The notes: generated from the letters alone by a model not told the origin. DNA of 64,000 nt from Candidatus Omnitrophota bacterium (GCA_043813305.1 JBDRLC010000064.1:32048-96047), one strand, 5' to 3'. Positions 3,095-55,664 are shown, counted from the first letter of the stretch. Numbers and translations: made by a program.

Positions 3095-4585
3095 ATGAGC
3101 CTGCAAAGACTTAAGATTCCTTTTTTAATAGTTATACTTATCGCAGTTAGTTTTGGAATATATGCGAATTCTTTAAGCGGAGATTTTTTGGTTGATGATA
3201 CATCGGCTATTCTGGAAAATGAACGCATACATGACCTAAAGCTATATTTTTCTAAATATTTTGGGTTTCGGATTAACATACTCAGTGAACTGGCATGGCT
3301 GTTTATCTGGCATTTTGCAGGCCCCAACCCTTTCTATTACCATCTATTTAATGTATTTGTTCATGTTGGCTGTGTGATTTTAGTTTTTATTCTTTGTGAC
3401 CTGTTATTTGAAAATCTTGCCCTTTCTTTCTTAAGCAGCCTGATTTTCGCACTCCACCCTATTCATACCGAAGCAGTAAGTTGGATTTCCGGCGGCCATT
3501 ACGCCTTTTCTAGTTTATTTTTTATCACTGCTTTGATTTTCTACATAAAAGCGGAAAAATCTCTTCTTAACCTTACTCTTTCAGTAATTATTTTTGCATT
3601 ATGCCTATCTACGGGTAATGCAGCCGCTACCTTACCGATTATGTATATTTTGTATGATCTATTTTTTCGAAAGCAAAATGCGCAATCATCCTCCCTTAGA
3701 AGATTAAGAGTATTGATTCTCTCCATAATATTAGTTACTTCTTCTATTTTTGTAGTCACTTATCTTATCAGGCGAAATGAATTTACGCGGATAATATTTT
3801 ATTACCGTGGCCCCCATTACTTAATAGTTATTGCCAAGGCCTTTGTTTACTATTTAAAGCTTCTCTATCTGCCGTTGGCCAGAGGGCTGTATCATCCTTT
3901 TGCCTTTGATAGCGCTGAAATCCAGAAGATTAGCCCGGCTTTCTTTTTTTCTATAATCATTGTAATGATTTCTCTGGTCTCTTTCTTTAAATGCAAACGT
4001 AACTTAAAACCCGTCTCTTTTGGGATTATGTGGTTTTTTGTTACATTTGCCCCATTTTCGAATGTTATACCTATATGCAACATTGTCTCAGAAAGGTATC
4101 TTTATTTACCTTCTGTTGGTTTTTCAATAATCCTCGCAGCCTTGTTTTTGAAGGTTTGGGAAATTATTAACAGAAATACTCAATACAAAGCGGTGCTCAG
4201 GTTTGCCTGTATTGTGATTATGAGTTTGTTTTTAGGCTCATACACTTTCTTGACTTTAAAACAGAATTATGAGTATAATAATATGATTACCTACTGGGAG
4301 ACCAATATAAAGAATTTCAAAGACGGCTACCTGGTTTATAATAATTTAGCCGGGACATATTATAAGATGGGGCTGATTGATAATGCCATAGCTTATTGCT
4401 GGATAAGCCTAAGAACTAATCCCAATCAGCCGTATGTCTGGTGTAATCTAGGTAATATTTATAGAGAGATGGGTGATTTGGAGCAGGCCAGAAATTGTTA
4501 TAAGGCGATCCTTGAAATAGATAAAAATTATTTTCCGGCACACAAGGCATTGGAGGAAATTAAGGCAGAGTTAGATGAAAAATAG
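3095..4585 (+). CDS. Polytopic GT-C-fold glycosyltransferase-like membrane protein with C-terminal TPR repeats (PMT/ArnT/TMTC-like)
   Basis: 496 aa with about 10-11 hydrophobic helices. Acidic GDFLVDD motif right after the first helix (position of the GT-C catalytic loop). C-terminal TPR-like repeats (AGTYYKMGLIDNAIAYCWISLRTNPN, GNIYREMGDLEQARNCYKAILEIDKN). No obvious SD. Confidence 0.6.
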   Translation: MSLQRLKIPFLIVILIAVSFGIYANSLSGDFLVDDTSAILENERIHDLKLYFSKYFGFRINILSELAWLFIWHFAGPNPFYYHLFNVFVHVGCVILVFILCDLLFENLALSFLSSLIFALHPIHTEAVSWISGGHYAFSSLFFITALIFYIKAEKSLLNLTLSVIIFALCLSTGNAAATLPIMYILYDLFFRKQNAQSSSLRRLRVLILSIILVTSSIFVVTYLIRRNEFTRIIFYYRGPHYLIVIAKAFVYYLKLLYLPLARGLYHPFAFDSAEIQKISPAFFFSIIIVMISLVSFFKCKRNLKPVSFGIMWFFVTFAPFSNVIPICNIVSERYLYLPSVGFSIILAALFLKVWEIINRNTQYKAVLRFACIVIMSLFLGSYTFLTLKQNYEYNNMITYWETNIKNFKDGYLVYNNLAGTYYKMGLIDNAIAYCWISLRTNPNQPYVWCNLGNIYREMGDLEQARNCYKAILEIDKNYFPAHKALEEIKAELDEK

Positions 4586-5093
4586 GAACTCTTTCACTTT
4601 AATAGAATTAGTTTTAATCTTGCTTATAGGAGGGATCATGGCAGCTATGGCAATAACGCAGGGGCCGGATATCCAGGGGGTAAGGTCAAGGCAAGCTGCT
4701 TATAAAATCAAGTCAGACTTAAGGTACGCCCAGAGCTATGAATTAGTGTCTCGTAAGCGAACAAGAGTTGCTTTTGATACCGACAATGAAAGCTATAGTA
4801 TTTATTATGAACAAACAGCAGGTAACAATGACTGGACATTAGCGGTTAACCCTTTAACTAAGAATAACTTTACAGTAGACTTTACGCAGCTGGAGTTTTC
4901 TAATGTTGATATTGTATCGGTAAATTTTGAAGGAACAGGTTTAGACCTGGTGTTTGATTCAAGTACCCCATATAGTTATAATTCCGGTACTCAGGTAGCA
5001 ACCCAACTTACGAGCGAAGGTATTATATCTCTTTCTGATAGCATGTCCGTGACAGTCGAGCCAAACACAGGAAAGGTCTCAGTTGATGGATAA
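4575..5093 (+). CDS. Minor pilin / pseudopilin (GspH/FimT-like)
   Basis: MKNRNS|FTLIELVLILLIGGIMAAMAI prepilin-type N-terminus with Glu+5, but Ser rather than Gly at -1. 172 aa; overlaps the upstream gene by 11 nt. Confidence 0.7.
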   Translation: MKNRNSFTLIELVLILLIGGIMAAMAITQGPDIQGVRSRQAAYKIKSDLRYAQSYELVSRKRTRVAFDTDNESYSIYYEQTAGNNDWTLAVNPLTKNNFTVDFTQLEFSNVDIVSVNFEGTGLDLVFDSSTPYSYNSGTQVATQLTSEGIISLSDSMSVTVEPNTGKVSVDG

Positions 5094-9864: not shown

Positions 9865-10068
9865 TTATGCTGCTTTAGTTACGTTAGTTGCCTGATCTCC
9901 CTTTGGACCCTGGGTGACCTCAAATTCTACCTCATCGCCTTCGTTAAGGCTCTTATAGCCATCTGCGCCGATTGCACTGTAATGGACAAATACTTCCTTG
10001 CCGTCATCAGAAGTGATGAAGCCATAACCCTTTTGGTTACTGAACCATTTCACTTTTCCTCTTGCCAT
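9865..10068 (-). CDS. cspA: Cold-shock protein (CspA family)
   Basis: 67 aa, [36 protein letters not shown]1-like KGYGFI and RNP2-like VFVHYS motifs. Confidence 0.95.
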
Positions 10069-10087
10069 ATCTTACCGTCTCACCTCC

Positions 10088-10235
10088 TTCAATGAGCACA
10101 TAACTTATGGAACAACGTGAACATAAGTTACTGTACGAATTGAACCCTTGACATCTTCAATGTCAAGGGTTATTTCGGCCATACAACTTACGTTCTCTTT
10201 CGCTCCGTAAGTTGTGGCCTCAATAAAAAACCGCA
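10088..10235 (-). repeat. Family-A three-hairpin repeat, copy A3, in the cspA leader (element sense = - strand)
   Basis: Read on the - strand: ATTGAGG, hp1 (CCACAACTTACG/CGTAAGTTGT), CCGAA, hp2 (CCCTTGACA/TGTCAAGGG), TTCAATTCG, hp3 (TAACTTATG/CATAAGTTA), CTCATTGAAGGAGG, N15, ATG(cspA). Same architecture as 37738-37883 and 46733-46905. Confidence 0.7.
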
Positions 10236-10335
10236 AAGCTAAAATCGAATCCTGGCTTTACGGTAATTTTATAATTCTCAAAACCTTACTTCTCCTTAAG
10301 CTAATTACAAGAGTAATATATCATTTTTTTTAATT

Positions 10336-10362
10336 TTGTCAATTTCTTTTTTATGATATAAT
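10336..10362 (+). promoter_or_regulatory. Candidate promoter for tRNA-Thr
   Basis: TTGTCA (10336-10341), 15-nt spacer, TGATATAAT extended -10 (TATAAT at 10357-10362). The spacer is short, so this is weak. Confidence 0.3.
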
Positions 10363-10396: not shown

Positions 10397-10448
10397 CCTG
10401 CCTGCCCTGCCTGCCGTCAGGCAGGCGTCAGGCAGGCGTCAGGCAGGG
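10397..10448. repeat. GC-rich palindromic/tandem repeat (family D, copy D1)
   Basis: CCTGCCTGCCCTGCCTGCC followed by three 11-nt units: GTCAGGCAGGC (10416-26), GTCAGGCAGGC (10427-37) and GTCAGGCAGGG (10438-48). The left and right halves are complementary. Confidence 0.8.
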
Positions 10449-21730: not shown

Positions 21731-22003
21731 ATGGTATCAGTATTCAGAAAGGGTTTCTGGCTCTTTGCTATCGCTGTGGTTTTGTTGATTATTTTTCTTC
21801 CCGGTTATTCAAAATTACAGGAAGTAAGAGACAGAAACAGTAAGTTAGAAGTAAAGATTGAGAAACTGGTAGAAGAAAATTCGCTCTTACAAAAAGAACT
21901 GGAGAAAATAGAAAACGATCCAGTTTATCAGGAGAAGATTGCCAGGGAGAAAATGGGGGTGGTGCGCAAAGGCGAAGTCCCCGTTAAGATCATCCCTGAG
22001 TAA
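21731..22003 (+). CDS. ftsB: Septum formation initiator (FtsB/DivIC family)
   Basis: 90 aa with an N-terminal TM helix, a leucine-zipper coiled coil and ENDPVYQEKIAREKMGVVRKGE. It follows eno, as in many bacteria. Confidence 0.8.
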   Translation: MVSVFRKGFWLFAIAVVLLIIFLPGYSKLQEVRDRNSKLEVKIEKLVEENSLLQKELEKIENDPVYQEKIAREKMGVVRKGEVPVKIIPE

Positions 22004-22007
22004 AAAC

Positions 22008-22130
22008 TTGTGTGTGGGTAAGGGTAAGGATGCCGGTTTGGTTTATGGGTAAGGTAGTTGGTGTTTTAACACCTAACCCTAACCCAACCACCAAACCAAC
22101 TTCCTAACCTTAACCCTAACCTTCACACAA
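22008..22130. repeat. Family-C long imperfect palindrome (copy C1), G-rich arm GGGTAAGGGTAAGG / C-rich arm CCTTAACCCTAACC
   Basis: The ends TTGTGTG (22008-14) / CACACAA (22124-30) enclose a hairpin of about 110 nt. About 85-90% identical to 55549-55664 by eye. Confidence 0.75.
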
Positions 22131-22416: not shown

Positions 22417-22575
22417 ATGGCAGACTCGGGTAAGGAAAAAAGAAAATTCAAAAGAACCAAGGCCAACTTCACCATTGTCTATGATCTATATAAGCCGCTG
22501 TCTGCAAGTATGAGCACAGGGGGGCAGATATGGCGAATCAAGATGCCAAGAGAAGAGATTACCAAAAATAATTGA
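22417..22575 (+). pseudogene. Truncated PilZ-domain gene (5' fragment, paralog of 28813-29196)
   Basis: MADSGKEKRKFKRTKANFTIVYDLYKPLSASMSTGG matches EKRKFRRTKANFTIIYDVYKPLSASMSIGG of the intact gene. Homology ends at residue ~37 and a stop follows at codon 53. The upstream TTAGTG(C/G)TATAATTA is also shared. Confidence 0.7.
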
Positions 22576-28812: not shown

Positions 28813-29196
28813 ATGAAAGATAAGGATATGGAAAAAAGAAAATTCAGAAGGACAAAAGCCAACTTTACAATAATCTATGATGTATATAAGCCGCTCTCTG
28901 CTAGTATGAGTATCGGAGGCAGGCAGGTCGATGCGCTGATGTTGGATTTAGGCAAAGCCGGCATGGCGATCTCCTCGAATTATGCTATGCCTGTTTCTAC
29001 GGTTTTGAATATGAAATTTACCCTGATCAATCGCCGCTCAGAACAGGAGAACCGTGTAATCTCTATGCAGCTATTGGGTGAAGTGTGCTCATGTACTTTA
29101 CAGGAAAACGGTGAGTACCGTCTGGGTATACGTTTTGTGCGCATAACTGAAGAAAACAAGAAAGCAATAGAGGAGTTTGTAGAAAAAATTTCATGA
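28813..29196 (+). CDS. PilZ-domain protein (variant c-di-GMP motif)
   Basis: 127 aa (alternative start at 28828). RxxxR present as RKFRR, but the second motif reads DLGKAG instead of D/NxSxxG. An extended -10 TGGTATAAT lies at 28780-28788. Confidence 0.7.
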   Translation: MKDKDMEKRKFRRTKANFTIIYDVYKPLSASMSIGGRQVDALMLDLGKAGMAISSNYAMPVSTVLNMKFTLINRRSEQENRVISMQLLGEVCSCTLQENGEYRLGIRFVRITEENKKAIEEFVEKIS

Positions 29197-29219: not shown

Positions 29220-29630
29220 ATGGGAAATCCAGGTAGCGAGAGAAGAAAATCTAAGAGGACAAAAGCCAACTTTACTATTATTTATGATGTGCATAAATCA
29301 GTCTCTATGGACGTGAGCCTGGCAGGCCAGGAGGTTGATGCATTGATGATGGATTTAGGTAAGGAAGGCTTAGCAATCACTACTAATTACGAGATACCTA
29401 TCGCAAGTATCTTGAATATGAAGTTCACCCTGATTAATCGCAGAGCTCAAGATAAGAATAATAAGAGCAGGTCTATCTATATAATGGGTGAGGTGCGCTC
29501 CAGTATCAGATTGGAGAACGGCGAATATCGTTTAGGGATTCATTTTATCCAGCTAAAAGATGAAGACGCAAAAGCCATAGATAATTTCGTGGAAGCTATG
29601 TCTAGCCCGCCTAAGAATGATGAAGGATAA
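29220..29630 (+). CDS. PilZ-domain protein, tandem paralog
   Basis: 136 aa with RKSKR and DLGKEG. About half of its residues are identical to the upstream paralog by eye (KANFTIIYDV, ALM.DLGK.G.AI, ILNMKFTLINRR, ENGEYRLGI.F). Confidence 0.7.
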   Translation: MGNPGSERRKSKRTKANFTIIYDVHKSVSMDVSLAGQEVDALMMDLGKEGLAITTNYEIPIASILNMKFTLINRRAQDKNNKSRSIYIMGEVRSSIRLENGEYRLGIHFIQLKDEDAKAIDNFVEAMSSPPKNDEG

Positions 29631-32337
29631 GCTCTGGGAATTCAGTGATAAATCAGGAAGTTTTAAGTCTGGTTCGGCAAACAAAATAAAAAATCTTTAT
29701 TTCCCGCTCGCCAATAGAAGCCTGATGTCTTCGGTCTCTCCTGATTTACACGGAGATATTAAGGCTAATCAGAATTCCTTTCTGCTTACTCCGGTTTCCC
29801 GCCAGGATTTAACAGACCTAAAGGCATCAAGAAATTTCTGGATCTATATAAACAAGGATAAGGTCTGGTCGGCTACCGGGGTATCCAAAGATGCAAGTAA
29901 TACTAAGAAAGATAAATATAATCTTGAAGCAGGGCTGCTTTGGCATAAGATAAGCAGGGAAAATAAGGATATAGGTTTGCGTGCAGAGATTCTTTCTTTC
30001 GTGCCAAAGCAGGAACCGATTGAGATAATGCTACTTAAAATTACCAATATTTCATCAAGGAAGATAAAGTTTGTTCCTACGGCAGCCATACCCATATATG
30101 GCCGGGGGGCAAATAATCTACGCGATCACCGTCAGGTTACCTCATTACTACAACGTATAACGCTTGATAAGTTCGGGATTATAGTGCAGCCGACATTACT
30201 CTTTGATGAAAACGGACACAGGCCTAATAAAACTATGTATTTTACTTTGGGCTGGGATGAAAGATTCACTGCGCCGCAATATCTTTATCCGACACAGGAG
30301 ATGTTTTGTGGTGAGGGAGGGGATTTAGAGGCACCGATTAGCGTACTTAATAATCTGCTCCCGCAAAATAAACATATTCAGGGTAAGGAAACAATGGGTG
30401 CTTTACGTTTTCGCAGTAAAGTTCTGGCTCCGAGAAAATCCTGGAGTTATATAATTGTGATGGGTATTAGCGAAGATAAAGCCGAGATAAAAGAGATTAT
30501 CAATAAGCTTAAAACTTTAGATAAAGTTCAAAAGTCATTCCAGGATACATCTAATCATTGGCTTAAGGGTATTCAGAGAATAAAGCTTTCGACCGGTGAT
30601 TATGAATTTGACAATTGGTTCCGTTGGGTTTCGATTCAGCCGAGATTAAGAGAGATCTTTGGATGTTCTTTCCTGCCTGATTTTGATTATGGAAGAGGGG
30701 GCCGGGGTTGGCGGGATCTCTGGCAGGATTGTTTAGGGTTAATTTTAAATAATCCTCAAGAAGTACGCAGTACCTTGATCAATAACTTTTCCGGAGTGAG
30801 AATCGATGGATCTAATGCTACGCTTATCGGTAAGAGCAAGAGTGAGTTTACCCCGTTAGAGACTAAAGGGAAACGACAGAAAGCTAAGATGTCTCTAACG
30901 GGGTTTAAATCCGACCGAAACAACATCAGCCGCGTCTGGATGGACCATGGCACCTGGCCTTTATTGACTTTAGATCTTTACCTTAATGAGACTGGGGATT
31001 TCAACATTTTATTTAAGCAGACCTCATATTTCCGTAACCATGAAGTCTGCCGGACGCGTGCAATTGATTTTAATTGGGAGCATGCTTACGGTAAGAAACT
31101 CAAGACGAAATCAGGTAAGATTTATCAAGGGACAATCTTAGAACATCTTCTGGTTGAAAACCTGGTGCAGTTTTTTAATGTAGGGGATCATAATTATATC
31201 CGGCTTGAAGGCGGGGATTGGAATGACGGCCTGGATATGGCGGAGGAGTTTGGCGAGAGCGTTGCTTTTACTGCTATGTATGCCAATAATTTGGGAGTTC
31301 TCTCTGGTTTATTATTAAAGACAGGTAAGAAAAAAATCATGATCGGCGGCGAAATAAAGCTATTACTTGCGAAGATAGATTACGGCGATATTAAGGGAAA
31401 AGAGAGAATTTTGCATAATTATTTTGAGAGGACTAAATCCGAGGTATCCGGCAAGAAGGTAAGTATAGACGTATTGGCGCTTGCATCTGATTTAAAGAGT
31501 AAATCCGACTTGATCATTGAGCATATTCGCAAGAAAGAATGGCTGAGATCAGGATTCTTTAACGGTTATTACGATAATAAAAAACAGCGTGTTGAAGGAT
31601 TCAGGCTTGGTAGATTGAGGATGATGCTCTCTTCACAGGTATTTTTGATTACTGGCGGCGTAGCCAACGATCTGCAGGTAAAACAGATTATAAAAAGTGT
31701 AGATAAATATCTCTATAACAGAAATCTAAAAGGTTATCAGCTTAATACTGATTTTAAGCAGGAGCAACATGATCTTGGCCGGGCCTTCTCCTATATATAC
31801 GGAGACAAGGAGAACGGCGCGTTCTTTAACCATATGATTGTGATGTATGCCTATGCTTTATATAAGCGCAATTTTATTAAGCAGGGTTGGAGAGTTCTAA
31901 GTTCAATATATAAGATGGCACTTAATACGCCGCAGAGCAAGATATATCCCTGCCTTCCGGAATATTTTAACCTTCAGGGCCAGGGTATGTATTCGTACCT
32001 TACCGGCTCTGCGAGTTGGTTTGTTTTGACTATGTTAAACGGAGTCTTTGGCGTGAGGGGGGAAGACGGCAATCTATTAGTTGAGCCGAAGATATCTTTC
32101 GAACAGTTTAAAGGTACTTCAATCATCAGCATAGAAAGGGTATTTACCGCAAGAAAGTTCCGGATAAATTTTTCAAAATCAAGAAGATCCAAAAATAAAG
32201 AATATAAAATTATCAAAGCCAGCCTTAATTCTCAAAATTTACCTTTAGTGCAGGATAAGCGGATTGTGATTAGCCGTAATAGAATAATGAAATTGCCAAG
32301 AGATAAAATACATACCCTGGAGGTTGTTTTAGGGTGA
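29617..32337 (+). CDS. GH94-like glycoside phosphorylase/hydrolase, (alpha/alpha)6-barrel enzyme of the cellobiose/chitobiose/beta-glucan phosphorylase type
   Basis: 906 aa. GRGGRGWRDLWQDC (the RDxxQD motif) and GGDWNDGLD (catalytic Asp motif GDWND) as in GH94 enzymes. Overlaps the PilZ gene by 14 nt. Confidence 0.55.
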   Translation: MMKDKLWEFSDKSGSFKSGSANKIKNLYFPLANRSLMSSVSPDLHGDIKANQNSFLLTPVSRQDLTDLKASRNFWIYINKDKVWSATGVSKDASNTKKDKYNLEAGLLWHKISRENKDIGLRAEILSFVPKQEPIEIMLLKITNISSRKIKFVPTAAIPIYGRGANNLRDHRQVTSLLQRITLDKFGIIVQPTLLFDENGHRPNKTMYFTLGWDERFTAPQYLYPTQEMFCGEGGDLEAPISVLNNLLPQNKHIQGKETMGALRFRSKVLAPRKSWSYIIVMGISEDKAEIKEIINKLKTLDKVQKSFQDTSNHWLKGIQRIKLSTGDYEFDNWFRWVSIQPRLREIFGCSFLPDFDYGRGGRGWRDLWQDCLGLILNNPQEVRSTLINNFSGVRIDGSNATLIGKSKSEFTPLETKGKRQKAKMSLTGFKSDRNNISRVWMDHGTWPLLTLDLYLNETGDFNILFKQTSYFRNHEVCRTRAIDFNWEHAYGKKLKTKSGKIYQGTILEHLLVENLVQFFNVGDHNYIRLEGGDWNDGLDMAEEFGESVAFTAMYANNLGVLSGLLLKTGKKKIMIGGEIKLLLAKIDYGDIKGKERILHNYFERTKSEVSGKKVSIDVLALASDLKSKSDLIIEHIRKKEWLRSGFFNGYYDNKKQRVEGFRLGRLRMMLSSQVFLITGGVANDLQVKQIIKSVDKYLYNRNLKGYQLNTDFKQEQHDLGRAFSYIYGDKENGAFFNHMIVMYAYALYKRNFIKQGWRVLSSIYKMALNTPQSKIYPCLPEYFNLQGQGMYSYLTGSASWFVLTMLNGVFGVRGEDGNLLVEPKISFEQFKGTSIISIERVFTARKFRINFSKSRRSKNKEYKIIKASLNSQNLPLVQDKRIVISRNRIMKLPRDKIHTLEVVLG

Positions 32338-33416: not shown

Positions 33417-34709
33417 ATGATAGCGCGTTATACCCTACCTAAAATGGCCGGTGTCTGGCAGGAGGAATTTAAGTTTAAGACCATGCTGGCCATAGAGATA
33501 CTCGTCTTAGAAGCACTCGCCAAACAAAAGAAACTTCCCCAAGATGCAGTTCGGAGAATCAAGAAGAAAGCAAGATTCAATATCAAAGAGATCAATAAAA
33601 TAGAAATAAAGACACAACATGATGTGGTAGCATTTGTCAATAACGTGGCACAAAATATTGGGAGAGATGCTAAATATCTGCATAAGGGTATCACTTCTTC
33701 CGATATTTTAGATACTACCCTTGGCGTGCAGTTGCAAGCAGCTTCGGGTATTTTGATCGAGGATGCTGAGAAACTGATTAGAGCGCTCTCTAAAAAAGCC
33801 AAAAGATACAAGGAGATGGTTTGTATCGGGCGCACCCACGGGGTACATGCCGAACCAACAACATTCGGCCTTAAGCTTGCATTGTGGTTTGATGAGATGA
33901 GGCGCAACTTAGTAAGATTAGAGCAGGCAAAAGAGGCAGTATCGCAGGGTAAGATATCCGGAGCAGTAGGGACTTTTGCCAATATTAATCCCGAGGTAGA
34001 AACTTATGTCTGTAAAAAACTTAATTTAAAGCCTGCCAAGATTTCTACGCAGATTATACAACGGGATGTATACGCCCAATATCTATGTGCCCTTGCGATT
34101 GTCGGCGCAAGCTTGGAAAAATTCGCTACAGAGATCAGGCACCTCCAGAGGACTGAAGTCTTAGAGGCAGAAGAGCCGTTTGGCAAAGGGCAGAAAGGTT
34201 CTTCGGCAATGCCGCATAAGAGGAATCCGGTGATCTGCGAGAGAATTTGCGGCCTAAGCCGGATATTACGCGCTAACGCCCTGGTGGCTATGGAGAATGT
34301 GACTTTATGGCATGAACGCGATATAAGCCATTCTTCAGCCGAGAGAGTGATTATGCCTGATTCGACGATCCTCCTGGATTATATGTTGAATAAATTTATC
34401 GAAGTGATCGACGGGCTTAACGTATATCCTGCTAATATGTTAACTAACCTAGTACGTACCCGCGGCCTGATTTTCTCCCAGAGGGTCCTGATTGAGTTGA
34501 TGAATAAGGGGCTCACCCGCACAAAGGCTTACGATGTAGTACAGCGTTGTGCGATGAAAACTTGGAGGCAAGGCTCTGATTTCAAGGCGAATATCTCTCA
34601 GGATAAAGTAGCATCGCAGCATCTGAAAGGTAAGGATTTAGACAAGATATTTGATTTGGATTATTATCTGCGAAACGTAAATAAGATTTTTTCCCGTCTT
34701 TTCCGATAA
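33417..34709 (+). CDS. purB: Adenylosuccinate lyase
   Basis: 430 aa with the fumarate-lyase signature GSSAMPHKRNP and TSSDILDT. Confidence 0.95.
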   Translation: MIARYTLPKMAGVWQEEFKFKTMLAIEILVLEALAKQKKLPQDAVRRIKKKARFNIKEINKIEIKTQHDVVAFVNNVAQNIGRDAKYLHKGITSSDILDTTLGVQLQAASGILIEDAEKLIRALSKKAKRYKEMVCIGRTHGVHAEPTTFGLKLALWFDEMRRNLVRLEQAKEAVSQGKISGAVGTFANINPEVETYVCKKLNLKPAKISTQIIQRDVYAQYLCALAIVGASLEKFATEIRHLQRTEVLEAEEPFGKGQKGSSAMPHKRNPVICERICGLSRILRANALVAMENVTLWHERDISHSSAERVIMPDSTILLDYMLNKFIEVIDGLNVYPANMLTNLVRTRGLIFSQRVLIELMNKGLTRTKAYDVVQRCAMKTWRQGSDFKANISQDKVASQHLKGKDLDKIFDLDYYLRNVNKIFSRLFR

Positions 34710-34808
34710 TAGTGAGAAACGGAATCCCGCCGGAAATTGAATTATCGCGCGGGGAGAAGGCTCGGTTTATAAAAGTAACCTACCTCAAACCCCAAAGAGT
34801 TATTTTTA

Positions 34809-37736
34809 ATGTTTTATAAGATCCAGATAAAGGATAAGCCAGGGATTTTTGATGCTGTCGGTGAAGGGATCAAGAAAAACATCCTCGACTTGGGGATAAA
34901 GTCTGTCTCAAGCGTTCGTTTCATACAGGTCTATACTATCATCGGCGAACTTTCTGATCAAGAGATCAGAAGGGTCTGCGAGGAATTACTGGTCGATAAA
35001 ATTTCCCAAGATTATTCCTGGAACGGTGCTCTTACCCAGCACTCAGAAAAGGATAAGGAGCATGTCATCGAGGTAGCTTATAACTCCGGGGTTATGGATC
35101 CCGTCCAAGAGTCTACCATAAAAGGTATAAAGGACTTAGGAATACAGGGTGTAAATTCAGTAAAAACCGCCAAAGATTACCTGATCAAAGGCAAACTCTC
35201 CAACACGCAATTAAAAACAATCTCTGAAAAACTACTCTATAATAAATTAATCCAGCATATTGTCAGCGGCAGCCAGCCGGTTACCGGCGCTTGGCAAGGC
35301 GAAGTCGGATATAGTTTTGATCTGGTTACCGTAGATCTACTTAAAGCATCAGATCAGAGATTAAAGCAGATCAGTAAAAAGGGCCAGTTATTTTTGAACC
35401 TTACCGAGATGTGCAAGATCAAAAGTTATTTTAAGAAATTAAAACGTAATCCCACTGATTGCGAATTAGAGACTATTGCCCAGACCTGGTCTGAGCACTG
35501 TTGGCATAAGACCTTTCGCGGAAGAATAAAATACTACGAGAACCTAAAACCTAAAACCCAGAACCTAAAACCTAAGCTAATCGATAATCTCCTGAAGTCT
35601 ACGATTATGAAGGTGACTAAGGAACTCAATAAGCCCTGGTGTGTTTCTGTTTTTAAGGATAACTCCGGAGTAATCAGATTTGACGAGAAGAATAATATCT
35701 GCTTTAAAGTAGAGACGCACAACCATCCCTGCGCACTTGAACCATTCGGCGGCGCTAATACAGGGATCGGGGGAGTTATTAGGGATCCTTTAGGTACTGG
35801 GTTGGGGGCAAAGCCGATTTTAAATACAGATGTCTTCTGTTTTGGCCCGCCGGATTATCCGTTTAATAAGTTACCATCCGGAACCTTGCACCCTAAACGT
35901 GTAATGAGGGGCGTAGTTTCAGGGGTTAGGGATTACGGGAATAAAATGGGGATACCTACTGTTAATGGCGCTGTTTTATTTCACGAACGCTTCATCAGTA
36001 ATCCTCTTGTTTACTGTGGCACTGTAGGAATCATGCCGAAGGACAAATCATTCAAAAATGTAAAGAAGGGAGATCTGATCGTGGTGGTAGGCGGAAGGAC
36101 CGGGAGAGATGGTATCCACGGAGCTACTTTCTCTTCGGGTGAGCTGACCCATGAATCTGAAACGGTCTCCAGCGGCGCAGTACAGATCGGTAATCCTATC
36201 CAAGAGAAGAAGATGGTCGATACCATACTGCAGGCACGCGATAAAAATTTATATAATGCAATCACCGATTGCGGGGCCGGAGGATTATCCAGCGCCGTCG
36301 GTGAAATGGGGGAGGAGTTAGGAGCGATAGTTCATTTAGAAAAGGTTCCTTTAAAGTATACCGGCCTCTCTTATATGGAGATATGGATATCCGAATCTCA
36401 GGAGAGAATGGTGCTTTCTGTCTCGCCTGATAAGCGCAGCCGGTTAATCGAACTTTTTAGAGAAGAAAATGTCGAAGCAACAGTAATCGGGGAATTTACG
36501 GATAACCAAAGACTTCAGCTTTACTATGATAATAATTTAGTCTCTGATTTAAGAATGGGTTTTTTGCACGGAGGCCTGCCTAAGACAGAGAAGAAAGCTG
36601 TCTTTGTCCTGACTAAACATAAAGAACCGAAGTCCAAGTGTCCTAAGAATCTTACTCCATATCTTCAGAGGCTGCTTTCTAGATATGATCTCTGCTCTAA
36701 AGAGTGGATCATCAGGCAATATGACCATGAAGTGCAGGGGGGATCAGTTCTCAAGCCGCTGGTAGGTATCAATAATGATGGCCCCTCTGATGCCAGTGTG
36801 GTGAAGCCGGTTTTGGATTCTAAAAAAGGGATTATTCTTTCCTGCGGAATAAATTTTAGATTCGGCTTTATCGATCCTTATTGGATGGCTGCTTCCTGTA
36901 TAGATGAGGCACTGCGGCAGATTATCGCTGTCGGCGGCAGCTTAAAAAAAGTAGCGCTATTGGATAATTTCTGCTGGGGTAATCCTGATAAGCCGGATAG
37001 ATTAGGAGCGTTAGTCAGGACAGCGTATAGTTGCTATGATATTGCCAAGCAGTTCGCTACGCCCTTTATTTCCGGTAAGGATAGCCTAAACAATGAATTC
37101 ACGGTAAACAATAAATCTATCTCCATACCCGGCACACTTTTGATCTCTGCAATTTCGGTGATGGAGGATATCAATAAAACAGTTTCTATGTTTCTAAAGC
37201 AACCAGGAAATTTAATCTATGTGGTGGGGGAAACCTCTGATGAATTAGGCGCATCAGCCTATTATGATTTATTCGGATTTCTTGGTAATAACGTTGCGAA
37301 AGTATTTCCTAAGCAGGCAAAGATTACCTTTGATTGTTTAAGTCGAGCTTCTGCGCACAGATTAATCAAAGCGATGCACGATTGTTCAGAGGGGGGCATT
37401 GGGGTTGCTGCGGCTGAAATGGCATTTGCTGGCGGGCTGGGAATGGATATCTTTTTATCAGAAGTGCCATATAAAATTCAAAATTCAAAATTCAAAATTC
37501 AAAATAAAAGGAATGATTATATTTTATTCTCAGAGTCGAATTCTAGATTCATTGTTGAAGTAGCTAAGAATAATCAGAGAAAATTCGAGAGTATATTAAA
37601 GGGGATTCCCTATGGGCTAATTGGTTGCGTTAATCCTAGGAAAGAATTTAAGGTTTTTGGTTTGGATGGAAGGATCTGTGTAAATGCCAAGGTTGATACT
37701 TTGAAGGAGGCCTGGCTTAAACCATTGAGGTGGTAA
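34809..37736 (+). CDS. purL: FGAM synthase subunit PurL with two N-terminal PurS-like domains (PurS-PurS-PurL fusion)
   Basis: 975 aa. Residues ~1-75 and ~85-155 each resemble PurS (KPGIFDAVGEGI...; NSGVMDPVQESTI...). The remainder is small-type PurL (WSEHCWHKTF, ETHNHP, GGVIRD, GKDSLNNE). Contains two low-complexity in-frame inserts. Confidence 0.9.
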   Translation: MFYKIQIKDKPGIFDAVGEGIKKNILDLGIKSVSSVRFIQVYTIIGELSDQEIRRVCEELLVDKISQDYSWNGALTQHSEKDKEHVIEVAYNSGVMDPVQESTIKGIKDLGIQGVNSVKTAKDYLIKGKLSNTQLKTISEKLLYNKLIQHIVSGSQPVTGAWQGEVGYSFDLVTVDLLKASDQRLKQISKKGQLFLNLTEMCKIKSYFKKLKRNPTDCELETIAQTWSEHCWHKTFRGRIKYYENLKPKTQNLKPKLIDNLLKSTIMKVTKELNKPWCVSVFKDNSGVIRFDEKNNICFKVETHNHPCALEPFGGANTGIGGVIRDPLGTGLGAKPILNTDVFCFGPPDYPFNKLPSGTLHPKRVMRGVVSGVRDYGNKMGIPTVNGAVLFHERFISNPLVYCGTVGIMPKDKSFKNVKKGDLIVVVGGRTGRDGIHGATFSSGELTHESETVSSGAVQIGNPIQEKKMVDTILQARDKNLYNAITDCGAGGLSSAVGEMGEELGAIVHLEKVPLKYTGLSYMEIWISESQERMVLSVSPDKRSRLIELFREENVEATVIGEFTDNQRLQLYYDNNLVSDLRMGFLHGGLPKTEKKAVFVLTKHKEPKSKCPKNLTPYLQRLLSRYDLCSKEWIIRQYDHEVQGGSVLKPLVGINNDGPSDASVVKPVLDSKKGIILSCGINFRFGFIDPYWMAASCIDEALRQIIAVGGSLKKVALLDNFCWGNPDKPDRLGALVRTAYSCYDIAKQFATPFISGKDSLNNEFTVNNKSISIPGTLLISAISVMEDINKTVSMFLKQPGNLIYVVGETSDELGASAYYDLFGFLGNNVAKVFPKQAKITFDCLSRASAHRLIKAMHDCSEGGIGVAAAEMAFAGGLGMDIFLSEVPYKIQNSKFKIQNKRNDYILFSESNSRFIVEVAKNNQRKFESILKGIPYGLIGCVNPRKEFKVFGLDGRICVNAKVDTLKEAWLKPLRW

Positions 37737-37737
37737 G

Positions 37738-37883
37738 TGAGGACATAATTTATCCGTCCGAACTTACCCCCACACCGATTGTTATTAAACGATAGTCGTT
37801 TTTATCAATTGGTGTGGGGGTCAAATTCGCAGACGGCTACGGCCTACAACTTACGTCGTTGAACTCCGTAAGTTGTCTGCTCA
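37738..37883 (+). repeat. Family-A three-hairpin repeat, copy A1 (5' hairpin truncated), between purL and the LOG gene
   Basis: GTGAGGACATAA..CCGAA-CTTA-CCCCCACACCGATTG..CAATTGGTGTGGGGG-TCAAATTCG-GCAGAC..ACAACTTACG..CGTAAGTTGT-CTGC-TCA. Flanked by the identical 14-mer ATTGAGGTGGTAAG at 37724-37737 and 37884-37897. Confidence 0.8.
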
Positions 37884-37897
37884 ATTGAGGTGGTAAG

Positions 37898-38581
37898 ATG
37901 AAAAGAAAAAAGATGAAGGCAGATTTTTCGCAGCAAGACACTTGGCGGGTATTTCGGATTATGTCGGAGTTCGTTGAAGGGTTTGAAGTGCTATCAAAAG
38001 TAGGAAGAGCAGTTTCTATATTCGGTTCAAGCCGCACCAAGCCGGGTACTGAATATTATAAGTTAGCTGAAGAGGTTGCCTACCTTTTAGCAAAAGAGGG
38101 CTACGCGATTATCACCGGCAGCGGCCCCGGTTCAATGGAGGCGGCAAATAAAGGCGCGAGGAGGGCCAAGGGTAAATCTATCGGCCTGAATATCCATATG
38201 CCTCAAGAGCAGAAGCCTAATAAATATGTCGATGAGCTTCTGGATTTTCATTATTTCTTTGTGAGAAAAGTGATGTTTGTCAAGTATGCCAAAGCCTTTG
38301 TGATCCTGCCGGGAGGCTATGGGACTATGGATGAATTTATGGAGGCGGTTAATCTGATTCAAACAGAGAGAATCCCTAAATTCCCGGTAGTCTTATTTAA
38401 CAGTGAATACTGGAAGGGTATGCTTGATTGGCTGCGTAGTACCGTATTAAAGAAAGGCAATATCAATAAAGAGGATTTTTATAATATTTTTACCGTGGTC
38501 GATAAGCCAAAGGATGTAGTCCGCGCGATAAATAAATTTTATGACCCTTCGACTCGCTGCGTTCGCTCAGGGTCATCCTGA
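37898..38581 (+). CDS. LOG / TIGR00730-family nucleotide phosphoribohydrolase-like protein
   Basis: 227 aa with GGGPGxME-like GSGPGSMEAAN and PGGYGTMDEFMEA. The last ~13 codons (DPSTRCVRSGSS*) are encoded by repeat B1. Confidence 0.8.
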   Translation: MKRKKMKADFSQQDTWRVFRIMSEFVEGFEVLSKVGRAVSIFGSSRTKPGTEYYKLAEEVAYLLAKEGYAIITGSGPGSMEAANKGARRAKGKSIGLNIHMPQEQKPNKYVDELLDFHYFFVRKVMFVKYAKAFVILPGGYGTMDEFMEAVNLIQTERIPKFPVVLFNSEYWKGMLDWLRSTVLKKGNINKEDFYNIFTVVDKPKDVVRAINKFYDPSTRCVRSGSS

Positions 38582-38617
38582 GCAAGCGACGAGCGGAGAG
38601 AGGAGCGCGTCGAACGG
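38541..38617 (+). repeat. Family-B repeat, copy B1, abutting the purQ start
   Basis: ATGACCC-TTCGACTCGCTGCGTTCGCTCA-GGGTCAT-CCTGAGC...GAGAGGAGCGC-GTCGAA-CGG-ATG. Shares its core with 44572-44626 and 46170-46283. Confidence 0.75.
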
Positions 38618-46173: not shown

Positions 46174-46283
46174 CCCATTCGACTCGCTTCGCTCGCTCAG
46201 GGTCATCTTGTGCTTCGACTCGCCCAGCATGGTTCGAAGCATGGTGAGTGAAATCGAACCAAGTGACTGAAAGGAATCGAAGG
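46170..46283 (+). repeat. Family-B repeat, copy B3 (internally duplicated), abutting the rpiB start
   Basis: ATGACCC-A-TTCGACTCG..CGCTCA-GGGTCAT..CTTCGACTCG..GTGACTGAAAGGAATCGAAGG-ATG. The stop codon of the upstream gene is the TGA inside ATGACCC. Confidence 0.7.
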
Positions 46284-46769
46284 ATGACGAAAAAAACTAT
46301 AATTATTGCATCGGACCACGGTGGATTTAATTTAAAAGAGAAATTAAAATCTTTTTTAGTGGAACTCGGGTTTAAGGTTAAGGACCTGGGCGCTTATTCT
46401 ACTAAAAGTACTGACTATCCCGAATCCGCCTATAAATTGGCAAAGGGTGTTTCAAGCGGAAAGTTTAAGAGAGGCATCTTGATCTGTAAGAGCGGTATCG
46501 GCAATTCTATCGTCGCGAATAGATTGCCGCGTGTCCGGGCAGCGCTCTGCTACAATCTGAAGGCAGCCCGGCTCTCACGGGAGCATAACGATAGTAATGT
46601 ATTGGTACTGGGAGCATCTTTCGTCAAAACGGAATTAGCCAAGAGAATGGTCAGGGTTTGGTTAAATACAAAGTTTCAGGGCGGCAGGCATAAAAGAAGA
46701 TTGAATCAGATAAAAGAGATTGAGAAGAAGATAAGTGAGGACATAAGTTATGGAGAGAAACGAACATAA
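46284..46769 (+). CDS. rpiB: Ribose-5-phosphate isomerase B
   Basis: Start at ATG 46284 (MTKKTIIIASDHGG); the track start at 46248 lies in repeat B3. ICKSGIGNSIVANR, EHNDSNVLVLG. The last ~11 codons run into repeat A2. Confidence 0.88.
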   Translation: MTKKTIIIASDHGGFNLKEKLKSFLVELGFKVKDLGAYSTKSTDYPESAYKLAKGVSSGKFKRGILICKSGIGNSIVANRLPRVRAALCYNLKAARLSREHNDSNVLVLGASFVKTELAKRMVRVWLNTKFQGGRHKRRLNQIKEIEKKISEDISYGEKRT

Positions 46770-46905
46770 CTTATCTGTCCGAACTTACCCCCACACCAAT
46801 TGTAAAAAACGACTATCGTTGAATAAACAATTGGTGTGGGGGTTCAATTCGCGCAGATAACTTACTCGCACTGACGTGTTCGTAAGTTATGCGCTCATAG
46901 AAGGA
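46733..46905 (+). repeat. Family-A three-hairpin repeat, copy A2 (full length), between rpiB and glyA
   Basis: GTGAGG, hp1 (ACATAAGTTATG/CATAACTTAT), CCGAA-CTTA, hp2 (CCCCCACACCAATTG/CAATTGGTGTGGGGG), TTCAATTCG, hp3 (GATAACTTAC/GTAAGTTATGC), GCTCATAGAAGGAG, N9, GTG(glyA). Confidence 0.8.
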
Positions 46906-46914
46906 GCTGATTAG

Positions 46915-49537: not shown

Positions 49538-51073
49538 ATGTACCTCAGACTTAAGTTCCTCGCTCAGGATAAGACAATCCTGGAATCCGTTTATTTATTT
49601 GCTAAAACAAAAAGAGTAAGATTATATTTGGTCGGGGGAATTTTACGGGATACTCTTCTGGCAAGAGTCAAACAGAACCCGGATTTCGACTTTTGTTTAG
49701 AGAAGGGCGCAATAAATTTTGCTAGATTACTCGCTAAGCAGATCAAGGCGGGATTCGTAGTCTTAGATAAAGAGCACGGGGCCTGCCGGTTAGTTTACCC
49801 CGTTAGAGGCAAGCTGCCGGAGGCAACCGTCGGACACCTGCGGTGTCCTGCCTCTAACGGGGTTAAAAAGGTAAAAGGTAAAATTTACACCTTAGATTTT
49901 ACTGATTTCCGGGGTAAAACCTTAGAGAAAGATCTTTTGCATCGCGACTTCACTATAAACGCTTTAGCCCTGGAATTAAAAGATGTTTTTGCTAAAGGGA
50001 ATTTGAATAATTTACTGATCGATCCTTATGGCGGTAGGGATGACCTGAAGTCTAAAACTATAAAAATGGTGAATCTTCGAGCCTTTGACGAGGATCCGCT
50101 TCGGATACTGCGGGCATTTAGTTTATCCGCAATATTTAGCTTAAAAATAGAGAAACAGACGCTTAAGTTAGCCGGATTAAAAAGGGAAAAACTGGCTGAA
50201 GTTTCCTTCGAGCGTATCCGCGATGAATTGTTTAAGATCCTGCAATGCCACAACTCTTTTAATTATTTCTTCCTACTGGATAAACTAAAAATTTTACAGG
50301 TGATTTTACCGGAGATTATCAAGATGCGCGGGATAGGACAGGGCCCATATCATCATCTTGATGTTTGGCAGCATACTTTAGAGACGATCAAACAGCTTGA
50401 AATCTTGTATAAAGAAGTAAGGCATAATCAGGATATCCAGCAATATCTTGATCAGATTATCTCTTCAAATAGGAGCCGTAAAACTGTGATAAAGCTAGGT
50501 GCGTTATTGCATGATATCGGCAAGCCCGCTGCTTTACGCAGAGAAGAGGGAAAGATAAAATTCCACGGGCATGAGAGGATCGGCCTGGGTATGACCGAAG
50601 ATATAGGCCGGAGGTTCAAACTCTCCATTGATGAAATTAATACTTTAAGAAAGATAGTCTTATGGCATTTGAGGCCGGGGTATCTTGCAGATTGTGAAGT
50701 GCTAACCCCGCGTGCAAAATTCAGATATTTCCGCGATGCTGATAAAGAAGCAATAAGTATACTTCTGATATCCTTGGCTGACCAACGCGCAACCAAAGGC
50801 CCCTTGACTACAAAAAATTCAAGAGTAAGGCATGAGAAGGTATGTAAGTCGCTGATTAGGGAGTATTTTAGAAAGAAAAAAGAGAAAAAGCCTAAGCGTT
50901 TGATTAACGGCGATGTGTTGATAAAGAAGCTTAAATTAGAACCGTCCCCCTTAATCGGTAAAATTTTATCTGAAATTGAGGAATTGCAGGCAATAGGAAA
51001 AATAAGCACAAAACCACAGGCTCTAGCAGCAGCGAGAAAGATATTGGGGACGGTTCTAATTTCTAAAAAATAG
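49538..51073 (+). CDS. tRNA nucleotidyltransferase / poly(A) polymerase family protein with HD domain
   Basis: 511 aa with [24 protein letters not shown] and HD-type HHLDVWQHT...LLHDIGK. Carries an in-frame palindromic insert at 49797-49863. Confidence 0.85.
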
Positions 51074-53532: not shown

Positions 53533-54519
53533 TTGAGGATAAGAGATACCGAGATCAAAGTGGTAAAGGGGGATATTACGGAATTAGAAGTAGGCGCTAT
53601 TGTGAATGCCGCTAATAATCAATTATTAATGGGTGGAGGAGTGGCCAAAGCAATAAAGAAAAAAGGCGGTAAGGCGATAGAAGAGGAGGCGGTAAGTAAG
53701 GGGCCGATTGAGATTGGAGAGTCTATATTTACCTCAGCAGGGAACCTCAAAGCAAAATACGTGATTCATGCCGCGACTATGGGTGTTCCTGCCTGCCGCC
53801 TGCCTGACGGCAGTCAGGGCAAGGCAGGGATTTTGCAGACCGACGAACTAAAAATCAGGAATTCCTGTAGGAGTTCCTTAAGAATAGCAGAGGACTTAAA
53901 AATTAACTCTATTGCCTTTCCTGCTTTAGGTTGCGGTGTGGGAGGATTCCCGCTTTTGGCCGCAGCGAAAATCATATCCCAGGAGATATTAAAGCACCTG
54001 CGCCAGAAGAAGACAGAATTAAAGGAGATTATTATCTGCCTCTATAATCAAGAGGCCTTTGAAGTATTTAACCGGGGAGTTATCAGCTATATTAATTATA
54101 TGACTGAAAAGCTCCAGAGCGGACCATTTACCACTGTAGACGCTATTATCGAGATTGACAATGGGATTGTATTAGTCCAAAGAAGTAATCCACCTTTTGG
54201 TTGGGCGCTCCCTGGAGGATTTGTTGATTACGGAGAGAGTTTAGAGGACGCTGTTACCAGAGAGACAAAGGAAGAAACAAACTTGGAGATAACTGAGTTA
54301 AAGCAATTCCATACCTATTCTGATCCCCGGCGGGATCCCCGCTTTCATACTATAGGTACTGTATTTATTACTAAAGTCAAAGGTCAGCCAAAAGCAGGTG
54401 ATGATGCCGCTTCTCTTAAGATTGCGAAGATCAGCGAATTAGGGAAGCTGGAATTTGCCTTTGACCATAAACAGATAATAAATGATTATTTAGAATATAA
54501 AAAAAAGGCGATGTTTTAA
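53533..54519 (+). CDS. Macro domain :: Nudix hydrolase fusion (ADP-ribose processing)
   Basis: TTG start. Macro domain: KGDITELEVGAIVNAANN, GGGVAKAI, VIHAA, ALGCGVGGFP. Nudix box: GGFVDYGESLEDAVTRETKEETNL. Has an in-frame GC-rich palindrome at 53788-53829. Confidence 0.85.
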   Translation: MRIRDTEIKVVKGDITELEVGAIVNAANNQLLMGGGVAKAIKKKGGKAIEEEAVSKGPIEIGESIFTSAGNLKAKYVIHAATMGVPACRLPDGSQGKAGILQTDELKIRNSCRSSLRIAEDLKINSIAFPALGCGVGGFPLLAAAKIISQEILKHLRQKKTELKEIIICLYNQEAFEVFNRGVISYINYMTEKLQSGPFTTVDAIIEIDNGIVLVQRSNPPFGWALPGGFVDYGESLEDAVTRETKEETNLEITELKQFHTYSDPRRDPRFHTIGTVFITKVKGQPKAGDDAASLKIAKISELGKLEFAFDHKQIINDYLEYKKKAMF

Positions 54520-55540: not shown

Positions 55541-55548
55541 TTATGAAA

Positions 55549-55664
55549 AGCTAGTAATTAGGTAAGGGTAAAGATGCCGGTATGGTTGTTAGGTAAGGTA
55601 GTTGGTGAATTTAGACCTAACCCTAACCAAACTACCAAACCGGCTTCCTAACCTTAACCCAGCT
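55549..55664. repeat. Family-C long imperfect palindrome (copy C2)
   Basis: AGGTAAGGGTAAAGATGCCGGTATGGTTGTTAGGTAAGGTAGTTGGTG-loop-GACCTAACCCTAACCAAACTACCAAACCGGCTTCCTAACCTTAACCC, collinear with C1. Confidence 0.75.

Follow-up and report, generated by a model that had tools for sequence, protein, structure and literature searches.

A mobile, modular palindromic DNA repeat, not described before, is found throughout Candidatus Omnitrophota. The repeat, here called Family A, was analyzed in a 64,000-nucleotide stretch from a Candidatus Omnitrophota bacterium (GCA_043813305.1 JBDRLC010000064.1:32048-96047; 41% G+C), referred to below as the window, where its three copies directly precede cspA, a LOG-family gene, and glyA. 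Family A is probably a non-autonomous element, resembling the doublets (REPINs) and mosaics (bacterial interspersed mosaic elements, BIMEs) formed by repetitive extragenic palindromes (REPs), or else a MITE (miniature inverted-repeat transposable element) in the broad sense. A full-text literature search returned nothing on repeats in Omnitrophota, and the element matches no family of Rfam 15 at its gathering threshold. The three copies had been picked out by an earlier reading of the sequence alone (the sequence-only reading) at, or within a few bases of, the limits given here, each ending at the Shine–Dalgarno (SD) sequence of the downstream gene:

10089-10226, minus strand: cspA copy, 138 nt, in three parts (left unit, central palindrome, right unit), delimited by sequence, fold, and a profile hidden Markov model (HMM) of the unit
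10170-10226, minus strand: left hairpin unit of the cspA copy, TTAT-TGAG-GCC-ACAACTTACG-loop-CGTAAGTTGT-AT-GGC-CGAA-ATAA, a row of the 87-unit alignment and included in its pair counts
10145-10169, minus strand: central palindrome (hairpin 2) of the cspA copy, CCCTTGACA-TTGAAGA-TGTCAAGGG, from the sequence
10089-10143, minus strand: right unit of the cspA copy, an inverted copy of the left unit, sense strand TCAA-TTCG ... CTCA-TTGA, also a row of the 87-unit alignment
10066-10088, minus strand: SD AGGAGG (10083-10088), beginning right at the foot of the right unit, and ATG (10066-10068, read from 10068) of cspA
37734-37888, plus strand: LOG copy, 155 nt, with truncated left unit (37734-37766), central palindrome (37767-37820), and right unit (37821-37888)
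37887-37893, plus strand: SD GAGGTGG of the LOG-family gene, two bases of it within the outer stem of the element, with the ATG at 37898
46732-46901, plus strand: glyA copy, 170 nt, with left unit (46732-46787), central palindrome (46788-46842), and right unit (46844-46901)
46902-46906, plus strand: SD AGGAG of glyA, from the sequence, with the GTG start at 46915

Each of the three copies is in sense orientation relative to its downstream gene, with 0-1 nt between the end of the element and the SD. Their folding far surpasses that of shuffled sequence (z = -9.8 for cspA, more exactly -9.75; -8.1 for LOG; -8.7 for glyA), and none of 200 shuffles was equally good. The three-hairpin architecture read from these copies is real, except that hairpin 1 of the LOG copy is missing its 5' arm, and that one unit, in inverted copies, forms both hairpin 1 and hairpin 3, which makes the whole element a near-palindrome; in the minimum free energy (MFE) fold of the cspA copy, hairpin 1 pairs with hairpin 3. 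The copies are non-coding and carry no transposase gene, the sole reading frame through any of them being an incidental read-through of rpiB, and no sigma-70-like promoter site was found inside any of the three. Neither sequence nor unit-HMM searches found a fourth copy within the 64-kb window; the corresponding density in unselected DNA of relatives is one copy in ~61 kb. At gathering thresholds, Rfam recovers only two tRNAs from the whole window, and at E <= 1 it returns only noise for two of the elements (mir-944, and cspA at 13 bits).

The mobility of the element is evident from orthologous junctions, as all three window sites are empty in relatives. The locus L135 (GCA_043812095.1; loci from other genomes are designated by such numbers) is collinear with the window over 28.8-39.0 kb at 88-92% nucleotide identity, and its purL–LOG junction reads ...AAACCATTGAGGTGGTAAAATG... 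(also given as ...CCATTGAGGTGGTAAAATG...), with a single copy of a 14-mer. The window junction reads ...CCATTGAGGTGGTAAG, then 147 nt, then ATTGAGGTGGTAAGATG, with a second copy of ATTGAGGTGGTAAG, and the 147-nt stretch (37737-37883) is missing from L135; L125 has the same single-copy empty site. The difference therefore represents an insertion in the window with a 14-nt target duplication, by which purL retains its end and the next gene its SD:

37724-37737, plus strand: first copy of the target duplication, ATTGAGGTGGTAAG, comprising the last four codons and stop of purL, present once only in L135 and L125
37884-37897, plus strand: second copy of the target duplication, supplying the SD GAGGTGG of the LOG-family gene

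The rpiB–glyA junction is empty in five relatives, with the two genes overlapping (ATGA or GTGA) in L049, L059, L123, and L125, and separated by a 59-nt spacer without element in L124. It is filled in L121, whose GlyA is 94% identical to that of the window; there, the left end and hairpin 1 are the same, and other palindromes serve as hairpins 2 and 3, placed among unchanged CCGAACTTA, TTAATTCG, and CTCATTGA motifs, so that modules are exchanged faster than the flanking DNA diverges. At cspA, the leaders of L140, L136, and L087 keep the promoter, the terminator-like hairpin with its T-run, and the SD, and lack the element, which was therefore inserted between T-run and SD in the lineage of the window. 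The junction of purM with a Band_7 gene is empty in L124 and holds a separate copy in L125, with a nested palindrome inside hairpin 3. The suggestion that the element delivers an SD does not survive these comparisons, as SD sequences are already present at the empty sites. We also observe that insertion has changed the tail of RpiB, for which automated annotation would give a slightly longer, non-homologous end:

46736-46769, plus strand: read-through of rpiB into the left unit of the glyA copy, with the C-terminus ...EKKISEDISYGEKRT followed by a TAA in the hairpin arm, as compared with the rpiB ends of L125, L059, and L049

The length of the target duplication varies, from 14 nt at the LOG site to at most 2-4 nt at glyA, and is ambiguous at cspA, where ATTGA overlaps the element's own end; the junctions coincide with short matches between element end and target (TAAG; TTGA/TTAA). 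This pattern may reflect a transposase with staggered end choice, or microhomology-mediated copying. Three other schemes were considered and rejected. TAA-like triplets flank many copies, as a fixed 3-bp TAA duplication would predict, but the outer four bases covary with the inner linker and thus belong to the hairpin, and such a duplication also misfits all three window sites. The outer four bases are not purely target, in the manner of an IS608-like guide, as the outer TTGA of the glyA copy is absent from the inferred ancestral junction. Nor was an autonomous parent found, in that no inverted pair of units 0.4-3 kb apart has an open reading frame (ORF) inside it in the fetched loci. Two further differences between the window and L135 involve shorter sequences: window positions 30851-30902, with a palindrome ACCCCGTTAGAGAC...GTCTCTAACGGGGT followed by TTAAATCCG, and 34692-34754, with a ATCCCGCCGG...CGCGGGG hairpin, are both absent from L135, by which palindromes of the hairpin-2 type also insert alone. 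A related ACCCCGTTAGAGG palindrome lies at 49794-49866 of the window.

A scan for the unit pattern across one genome per GTDB species matched at least 120 loci, and all figures given below for units, flanks, and downstream genes of other genomes are among the matches listed. The unit HMM confirms 112 of the 120 loci listed at E < 1e-6. By record title, the matches listed are nearly all metagenome-assembled genomes of Candidatus Omnitrophota/Omnitrophica, from different species, with a minority carrying Planctomycet- names or labelled only 'bacterium'; the few from outside Omnitrophota have weak HMM scores or none, and look like chance. A phage origin was likewise set aside, the nine viral-contig matches being weak and those examined lying in unrelated sequence, again as expected of chance. 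The window's own genome is not among the scanned loci, to which its best nucleotide identity is ~72%. Exact look-ups gave no record for the GlyA of the window (its GTG start rendered as V), for its CspA, or for the homologue P0123. Because the GlyA of the window is only 64-67% identical to those of L049 and L059, where the sequence of the unit is kept, the unit is conserved across a deep divergence.

The anatomy of the unit was resolved in an alignment (A3) of 87 units from the window and other genomes, with 63 columns, which is the basis of the paired-cell and covariation counts. The unit is a 57-63-nt hairpin with the consensus NNNN-TGAG-NNN-AYAASTTAYG-loop-CRTAASTTRT-(1-2 nt bulge)-NNN-CGAA-NNNN. 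TGAG (columns 5-8) is invariant and lies opposite CGAA, with the pairs U-A, G·A, A·G, and G-C, an arrangement known in nucleic acids as a tandem sheared G·A motif. Beyond TGAG, the outermost 4 nt are complementary to, and pair with, those that follow CGAA (TAAG/CTTA, TTAA/TTAA, TCAA/TTGA, TAAA/TTTA, TTAT/ATAA), forming an outer 4-bp stem that is variable in sequence and covaries. The linkers that the sequence-only reading had taken to be single-stranded are therefore paired. Across the alignment, 95.2% of cells are paired, as compared with 83% in shuffles and ~30% with partners slid; double-change cells number 209 versus 64 in shuffles, and the covariation score is 0.328 versus 0.110. The maintenance of structure, from which the sequence-only reading had inferred selection, is borne out by the 95% of cells that are paired and by this excess of covariation.

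Covariation of the helices, claimed for the element as a whole, holds for the unit but not base by base for hairpin 2, which is simply a different palindrome in the cspA copy (CCCTTGACA.../...TGTCAAGGG) than in the other two (CCCCCACACC.../...GGTGTGGGGG, the loop of the LOG copy being inverted relative to that of the glyA copy). What had appeared as a swap of the hairpin 1 arms between the cspA and glyA copies is a single G:C to C:G flip at the center of the quasi-palindromic TAASTTA, whose central S pair is C:G in 105 cases and G:C in 12. The NNN triplet is perfectly complementary in 97 of 117 units and takes at least 12 different sequences (CGC/GCG 22, CAC/GTG 19, CAG/CTG 15, GCC/GGC 14, others fewer). 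Of the 87 units, 53 have the apex C-G(N)NA-G, of GNA/GNRA type, on their own strand, and 3 have it on the complementary one. A full element consists of a unit, an interchangeable G+C-clamped palindrome, and an inverted unit; solo units, units with a palindrome, nested palindromes, and tandem arrays also occur. The hairpin-2 module types of the window, plus several others, recur in other species, the cspA type in L026, L029, L080, L095, and L102. The tandem arrays consist of 2-3 repeats of unit plus palindrome (L103 6137-6450; L025 4534-4773; L092 501-725; L116 3071-3220), and in that of L025, which precedes secY, every repeat carries a stop/SD-like junction copy, TAATAAGGTGGGATG. The sequence-only reading had named a REP/MITE-like element as one option, and this part of it is upheld by the inverted terminal units, the presence or absence of copies between relatives, the 14-nt duplication, and the arrays and module swapping.

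Flanks anchored on TGAG (CTCA on the sense strand) fall into four classes. The first is CTCA-TT[A/G/T]A-(A)GGAGG-N5-9-ATG followed by a long ORF. In the second, CTCA-TTAA(N0-4)-ATG, with 31 of 92 cases, there is no SD and the start codon stands 3-8 nt from CTCA. The third is ...TAAG-TGAG, whose TAA serves the upstream gene as stop codon, for example purL (window, L106) or purM (L125), and the fourth is a terminator hairpin with T-run and AT-TGAG, as in the cspA copy of the window and in L114, L062, and L008. An internal marker distinguishes left units (CGAAC...) from right units (CGAAT...). Next to right units, the outer gene reads away in 78 cases and toward the element in 17; for left units the counts are 8 and 14 (Fisher p = 5e-5). 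The orientation bias that the sequence-only reading had singled out for checking is thus real, but the sense orientation it described as constant, as in all three window copies, holds across the phylum for ~80% of right-end units, not 100%.

The 91 downstream proteins are unrelated to one another: among the 758 NCBIfam families that they match, no family recurs more than twice. From the N-termini, many highly expressed genes are among them: ribosomal proteins S8, S9, S11, S16, L17, and L18; the translation factors EF-G, IF-1, RRF, and RF-1; and GroEL, DnaK, trigger factor (twice), ACP (twice), SecY, enolase, GAPDH, PfkA, GreA, and CspA. Ribosomal, translation, and chaperone genes make up 15 of the 91, for a binomial p of 3e-6 to 6e-3 at assumed backgrounds of 4-8%, a range for highly expressed genes drawn from general knowledge. 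The genes that start 3-8 nt after the element with no SD include EF-G, IF-1, L17, L18, S9, SecY, and RF-1. Such starts are accounted for by insertion between SD and ATG, since the SD of an empty site such as GGTGGTAAAATG is located within the upstream gene; other genes of this kind had no SD even before the insertion. Units also neighbor tRNA genes. At L113 (~3480-3670) a tRNA is directly followed by TTAATTCG-unit-CTCATTAA-ATG (glmS), and units follow tRNA 3' ends in L051 and L012. A unit plus palindrome precedes a tRNA gene in L004 (~4830-5060) and L012 (~1350-1560), with ~19 nt of the tRNA 5' end duplicated (GCGCCTGTAGCTCAATT); the CTCAATT within this duplicate resembles a unit end.

These traits invite comparison with known repeats. 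MITEs are defined as shorter than ~200-400 bp, with no transposase gene, with terminal inverted repeats around a core, with a target-site duplication at the flanks, and with a parent insertion sequence that has the same terminal repeats (PMC3184786). The window copies, at 138, 155, and 170 nt and with no transposase gene, are of that kind; they end in inverted 57-63-nt units, and copies are present or absent at orthologous sites (the three window sites and the purM junction of L125 and L124). A target duplication is clear at the LOG site alone. A REP, in turn, is an imperfect palindrome of 20-40 nt with a 5' GTAG or CGTC tag (PMC3733652). REPs typically exceed 100 copies per genome and flank a RAYT gene, which encodes a Y1 transposase. 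Family A departs from this definition in both size and tag, but shares with REPs, BIMEs, and REPINs the inverted pairs of tagged hairpins (here around a central module), the extra-palindromic motifs, the mosaic and tandem combinations, the folding of the doublet into one long hairpin, and an extragenic position, co-transcribed at cistron boundaries. It differs from them in its unit, about twice as long, in its third, interchangeable palindrome, in its strong polarity toward the downstream start, and in its phylum-wide rather than species-level distribution.

It is possible, though we consider it doubtful, that Family A is a REP/REPIN system proper, in which REP-like hairpins are moved via single-stranded DNA by a domesticated HUH/Y1 transposase (a REP-associated tyrosine transposase, RAYT), one per genome. 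On such a scheme TGAG would stand in for the GTAG/CGTC tag, and the outer stem of 4 nt might tentatively be seen as a cleavage or target site read by base pairing. The inverted doublets, extra-palindromic motifs, and mosaics are as in BIMEs and REPINs (PMC2817692, PMC3116915); sheared G·A motifs are confined to one strand, as expected if hairpins are read in single-stranded DNA; the outermost 4 nt, beyond TGAG, covary with those that follow CGAA; and insertions lie beside terminator T-runs, stop codons, and tRNA 3' ends. However, the units are not 20-40 nt long, the tag is neither GTAG nor CGTC (PMC3733652), REP families are normally specific to a species or genus, and the outer TTGA at glyA apparently came with the element and not from the target. 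No RAYT was seen beside units in ~1.1 Mb of loci, though no proper search for one was made.

Three other systems are informative. BOX elements of S. pneumoniae (boxA-boxB(n)-boxC), which are MITE-like repeats (PMC3184786), have the same modular A-B(n)-C plan with complementary ends, span 100-300 nt, have no coding capacity, and are intergenic and transcribed, with the ability to fold into a long stem-loop. They differ in that there is no sequence relation, that the end modules here are G·A hairpins, that the duplication here varies in length, and that no partner insertion sequence is known here. Correia elements (CREE/NEMIS) of Neisseria are 100-155 bp long with inverted-repeat ends, often lie just upstream of genes, and are co-transcribed; their inverted-repeat hairpin is cut by RNase III, which alters mRNA stability, and they insert in both orientations with a TA duplication and contain promoter and integration host factor (IHF) sites. 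They are a plausible functional analogue, although none of these last traits was found here, and no window copy contains a promoter-like site. In IS608, a guide sequence pairs with the cleavage site, and the covarying foot of the Family A unit is reminiscent of this. With the IS200/IS605 family, Family A shares hairpins with strand-specific non-Watson–Crick features, an orientation bias, and a tetranucleotide by the hairpin foot that covaries with an internal tetranucleotide; the end hairpins of that family, however, are on the same strand, with no target duplication, whereas the units here are inverted, with one 14-nt duplication, and no TnpA or TnpB was found. Family A works like REP/BIME/REPIN, BOX, and Correia elements, but lacks the size and tag of a REP.

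It is less likely that the element is a functional cis-acting RNA module, a punctuation or expression element of cistrons recognized by a conserved Omnitrophota factor (an RNase, an RNA-binding protein, or a ribosomal protein). Such a factor might process polycistronic mRNA, stabilize cistrons, or aid initiation at abutting SD or SD-less starts, mobility being only the means of spread, a scenario to which we give little weight. It would account for the ~80% sense polarity, for a right end that abuts an SD or ATG at fixed distance in at least 92 cases, for the SD-less starts, for the excess of highly expressed downstream genes, and for a TGAG/CGAA pair kept phylum-wide amid strong covariation elsewhere. 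Against it, G·U pairs are no more frequent than A·C pairs (67 versus 66) in the sense-oriented stems of 89 elements, and sense and antisense strands are equally stable (MFE -58.26 and -58.39 kcal/mol; Wilcoxon p = 0.45). In 71 of 87 units, the strand with the G·A and GNA/GNRA features, read outside in, is the one antisense to the downstream gene, so that what the mRNA carries there are U·C/C·U loops and apices of pyrimidines. Identical unit sequences serve in either orientation, and two loop sequences recur unchanged in left units and in right units; relatives manage without the element at the orthologous junctions; the close relative L121 has swapped hairpins 2 and 3; and SD-less starts follow from empty sites like that quoted above. 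Predicted SD accessibility is inconsistent, as the element lowers it at cspA and glyA and raises it at the LOG gene. RNA-specific selection is not supported, given the equality of G·U and A·C pairs, the equal MFEs, the antisense motif strand, the shared loops, and the relatives without the element.

An RNA thermometer or other cold-shock 5' untranslated region (UTR) element specific to cspA, as the sequence-only reading had entertained for a structured leader, is highly improbable and is refuted as far as sequence analysis reaches, for although a strong promoter-like site upstream places the element in the cspA 5' UTR, it also precedes the LOG-family gene and glyA, its unit precedes ~90 other unrelated genes, the orthologous cspA leaders of L140, L136, and L087 are free of it, its score against the Rfam cspA thermoregulator (RF01766) is 13.4 bits (E = 0.31) versus a gathering score of 78, and its predicted fold is stable from 4 °C (MFE -100.6 kcal/mol) to 65 °C (-26.5 kcal/mol), keeping 47-55 pairs. 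Temperature-labile control of the SD is thus not predicted, and the diversity of downstream families is unlike the one-family association of a gene-specific riboswitch-like leader. The position of the promoter gives the cspA 5' UTR around the element a length of ~240 nt; two further features lie upstream of the element:

10315-10342, minus strand: promoter-like site of cspA, TTGACA-16-TATATT with TG, 11 of 12 matches; the same promoter is kept in L140 and L087
10225-10263, minus strand: terminator-like hairpin CCGTAAAGC...GCTTTGCGG with T-run, in the cspA leader just upstream of the element; kept in relatives without the element and not part of it

The leader itself is conserved without the element (window 10225-10342, minus; L140 2765-2890, minus; L136 2715-2850, minus; L087 1500-1650, plus), with a TTGACA-N16-TATNTT promoter and a hairpin CCGTAAAG...CTTTACGG whose T-run immediately precedes the SD; a AAGGAGAAGTAA(A/G)G box is common to the window and L140. 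It looks like an attenuator or cold-shock leader, and may be the place to look for regulation of cspA. Runs of CCTGCC/GGCAGG-type short repeats lie at 10403-10447 of the window, between the cspA promoter region and a tRNA gene, and at 53788-53829; the intergenic region matching the former is much shorter in L140 and L136. In L136 (1-1700), helix-turn-helix genes and a phage-type integrase lie just past cspA, with a tRNA gene between cspA and a major facilitator superfamily gene, which suggests an integrated element not related to Family A.

If Family A is a palindromic DNA repeat of the REPIN/BIME or MITE kind, its behavior might be explained as follows. With their tiny or overlapping gene junctions, these genomes would tolerate insertion only in the few bases that separate a stop codon, or a terminator T-run, from the SD or start codon that follows, and it is there that nearly all copies would survive. 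The elements would be co-transcribed, the cspA copy as part of the 5' UTR. Their polarity and the excess of highly expressed genes may arise if insertion is strand-specific and enters DNA made single-stranded by transcription, if the other orientation is selected against, or both. The one-strand G·A motifs, read outside in, would serve recognition of the DNA hairpin by an end-binding enzyme, for which an HUH/Y1 transposase (RAYT or IS200-type) is a candidate. At the RNA level, the elements would amount to very stable hairpins at cistron boundaries, possibly mRNA stabilizers or processing sites, without temperature sensing or gene-specific regulation. REP and Correia elements in other bacteria form stabilizing or processing hairpins.

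Several observations weigh against this explanation. Beside the units in the ~1.1 Mb of loci, no transposase or RAYT was noticed, though no Y1-transposase profile search was made, and no inverted unit pair in the fetched loci encloses an ORF. A clear target duplication occurs at one site only, and its 14 nt are unlike the classical duplication of fixed length. The unit is conserved where GlyA identity is down to 64-67%, which selfish repeats do not usually show and which would be consistent with a conserved host factor or function. The polarity, the abutment on SD or ATG, the 15 of 91 ribosomal, translation, and chaperone genes, and the roughly one third of downstream genes that start 3-8 nt after the element with no SD between are also expected of a functional expression element. 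Family A is a new family, with phylum-wide conservation, a long tagged hairpin unit, a swappable central palindrome, and strong polarity at start sites as its unusual traits.

Other repeats were observed in the window. The sequence CCxTTCGACTCGCTxCGxTCGCTCAGGGTCATCxTGxGC occurs at 38545-38583, overlapping the last codons of the LOG-family gene, and at 46175-46213, just after the Sua5 stop; it is also found in L135 (10660-10720) and resembles the ATCCTGAG...CGAAGGAT hairpin-2 modules of other species. Two families of direct repeats, 107-115 nt long and 63-83% identical, lie at 22002-22116 and 55546-55660, and at 22417-22523, 28813-28919, and 29220-29326. The second overlaps PilZ-domain genes in L135 and may be paralogous coding sequence rather than a repeat element.

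The identification of Family A removes a tempting annotation of an RNA thermosensor at cspA. A repeat shared phylum-wide also marks the lineage, and gives rise to broken assemblies and to annotation errors such as that at the RpiB C-terminus. Omnitrophota are uncultured, often ultra-small bacteria with compact genomes, and the repeat provides a natural experiment in which such genomes tolerate 140-170-nt hairpins between stop codon and ribosome-binding site, even within ribosomal-protein operons. Its G·A pairs, GNA/GNRA apex, covarying foot, and swappable modules constitute a defined substrate for finding the enzyme that moves it. If the fate of mRNA is affected, the hairpins would be a phylum-wide feature of expression. 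There is, finally, an outside chance that the hairpin unit with its TGAG/CGAA pair is a site for a conserved, Omnitrophota-wide factor, making the elements gene-boundary punctuation. Punctuation elements of this kind would spread by short homology to stop-codon/SD junctions, preferring highly expressed genes, and would direct mRNA processing or stabilization, or SD-less initiation 3-8 nt from the hairpin foot; the phylum would then have a specific layer of operon expression made of mobile DNA.

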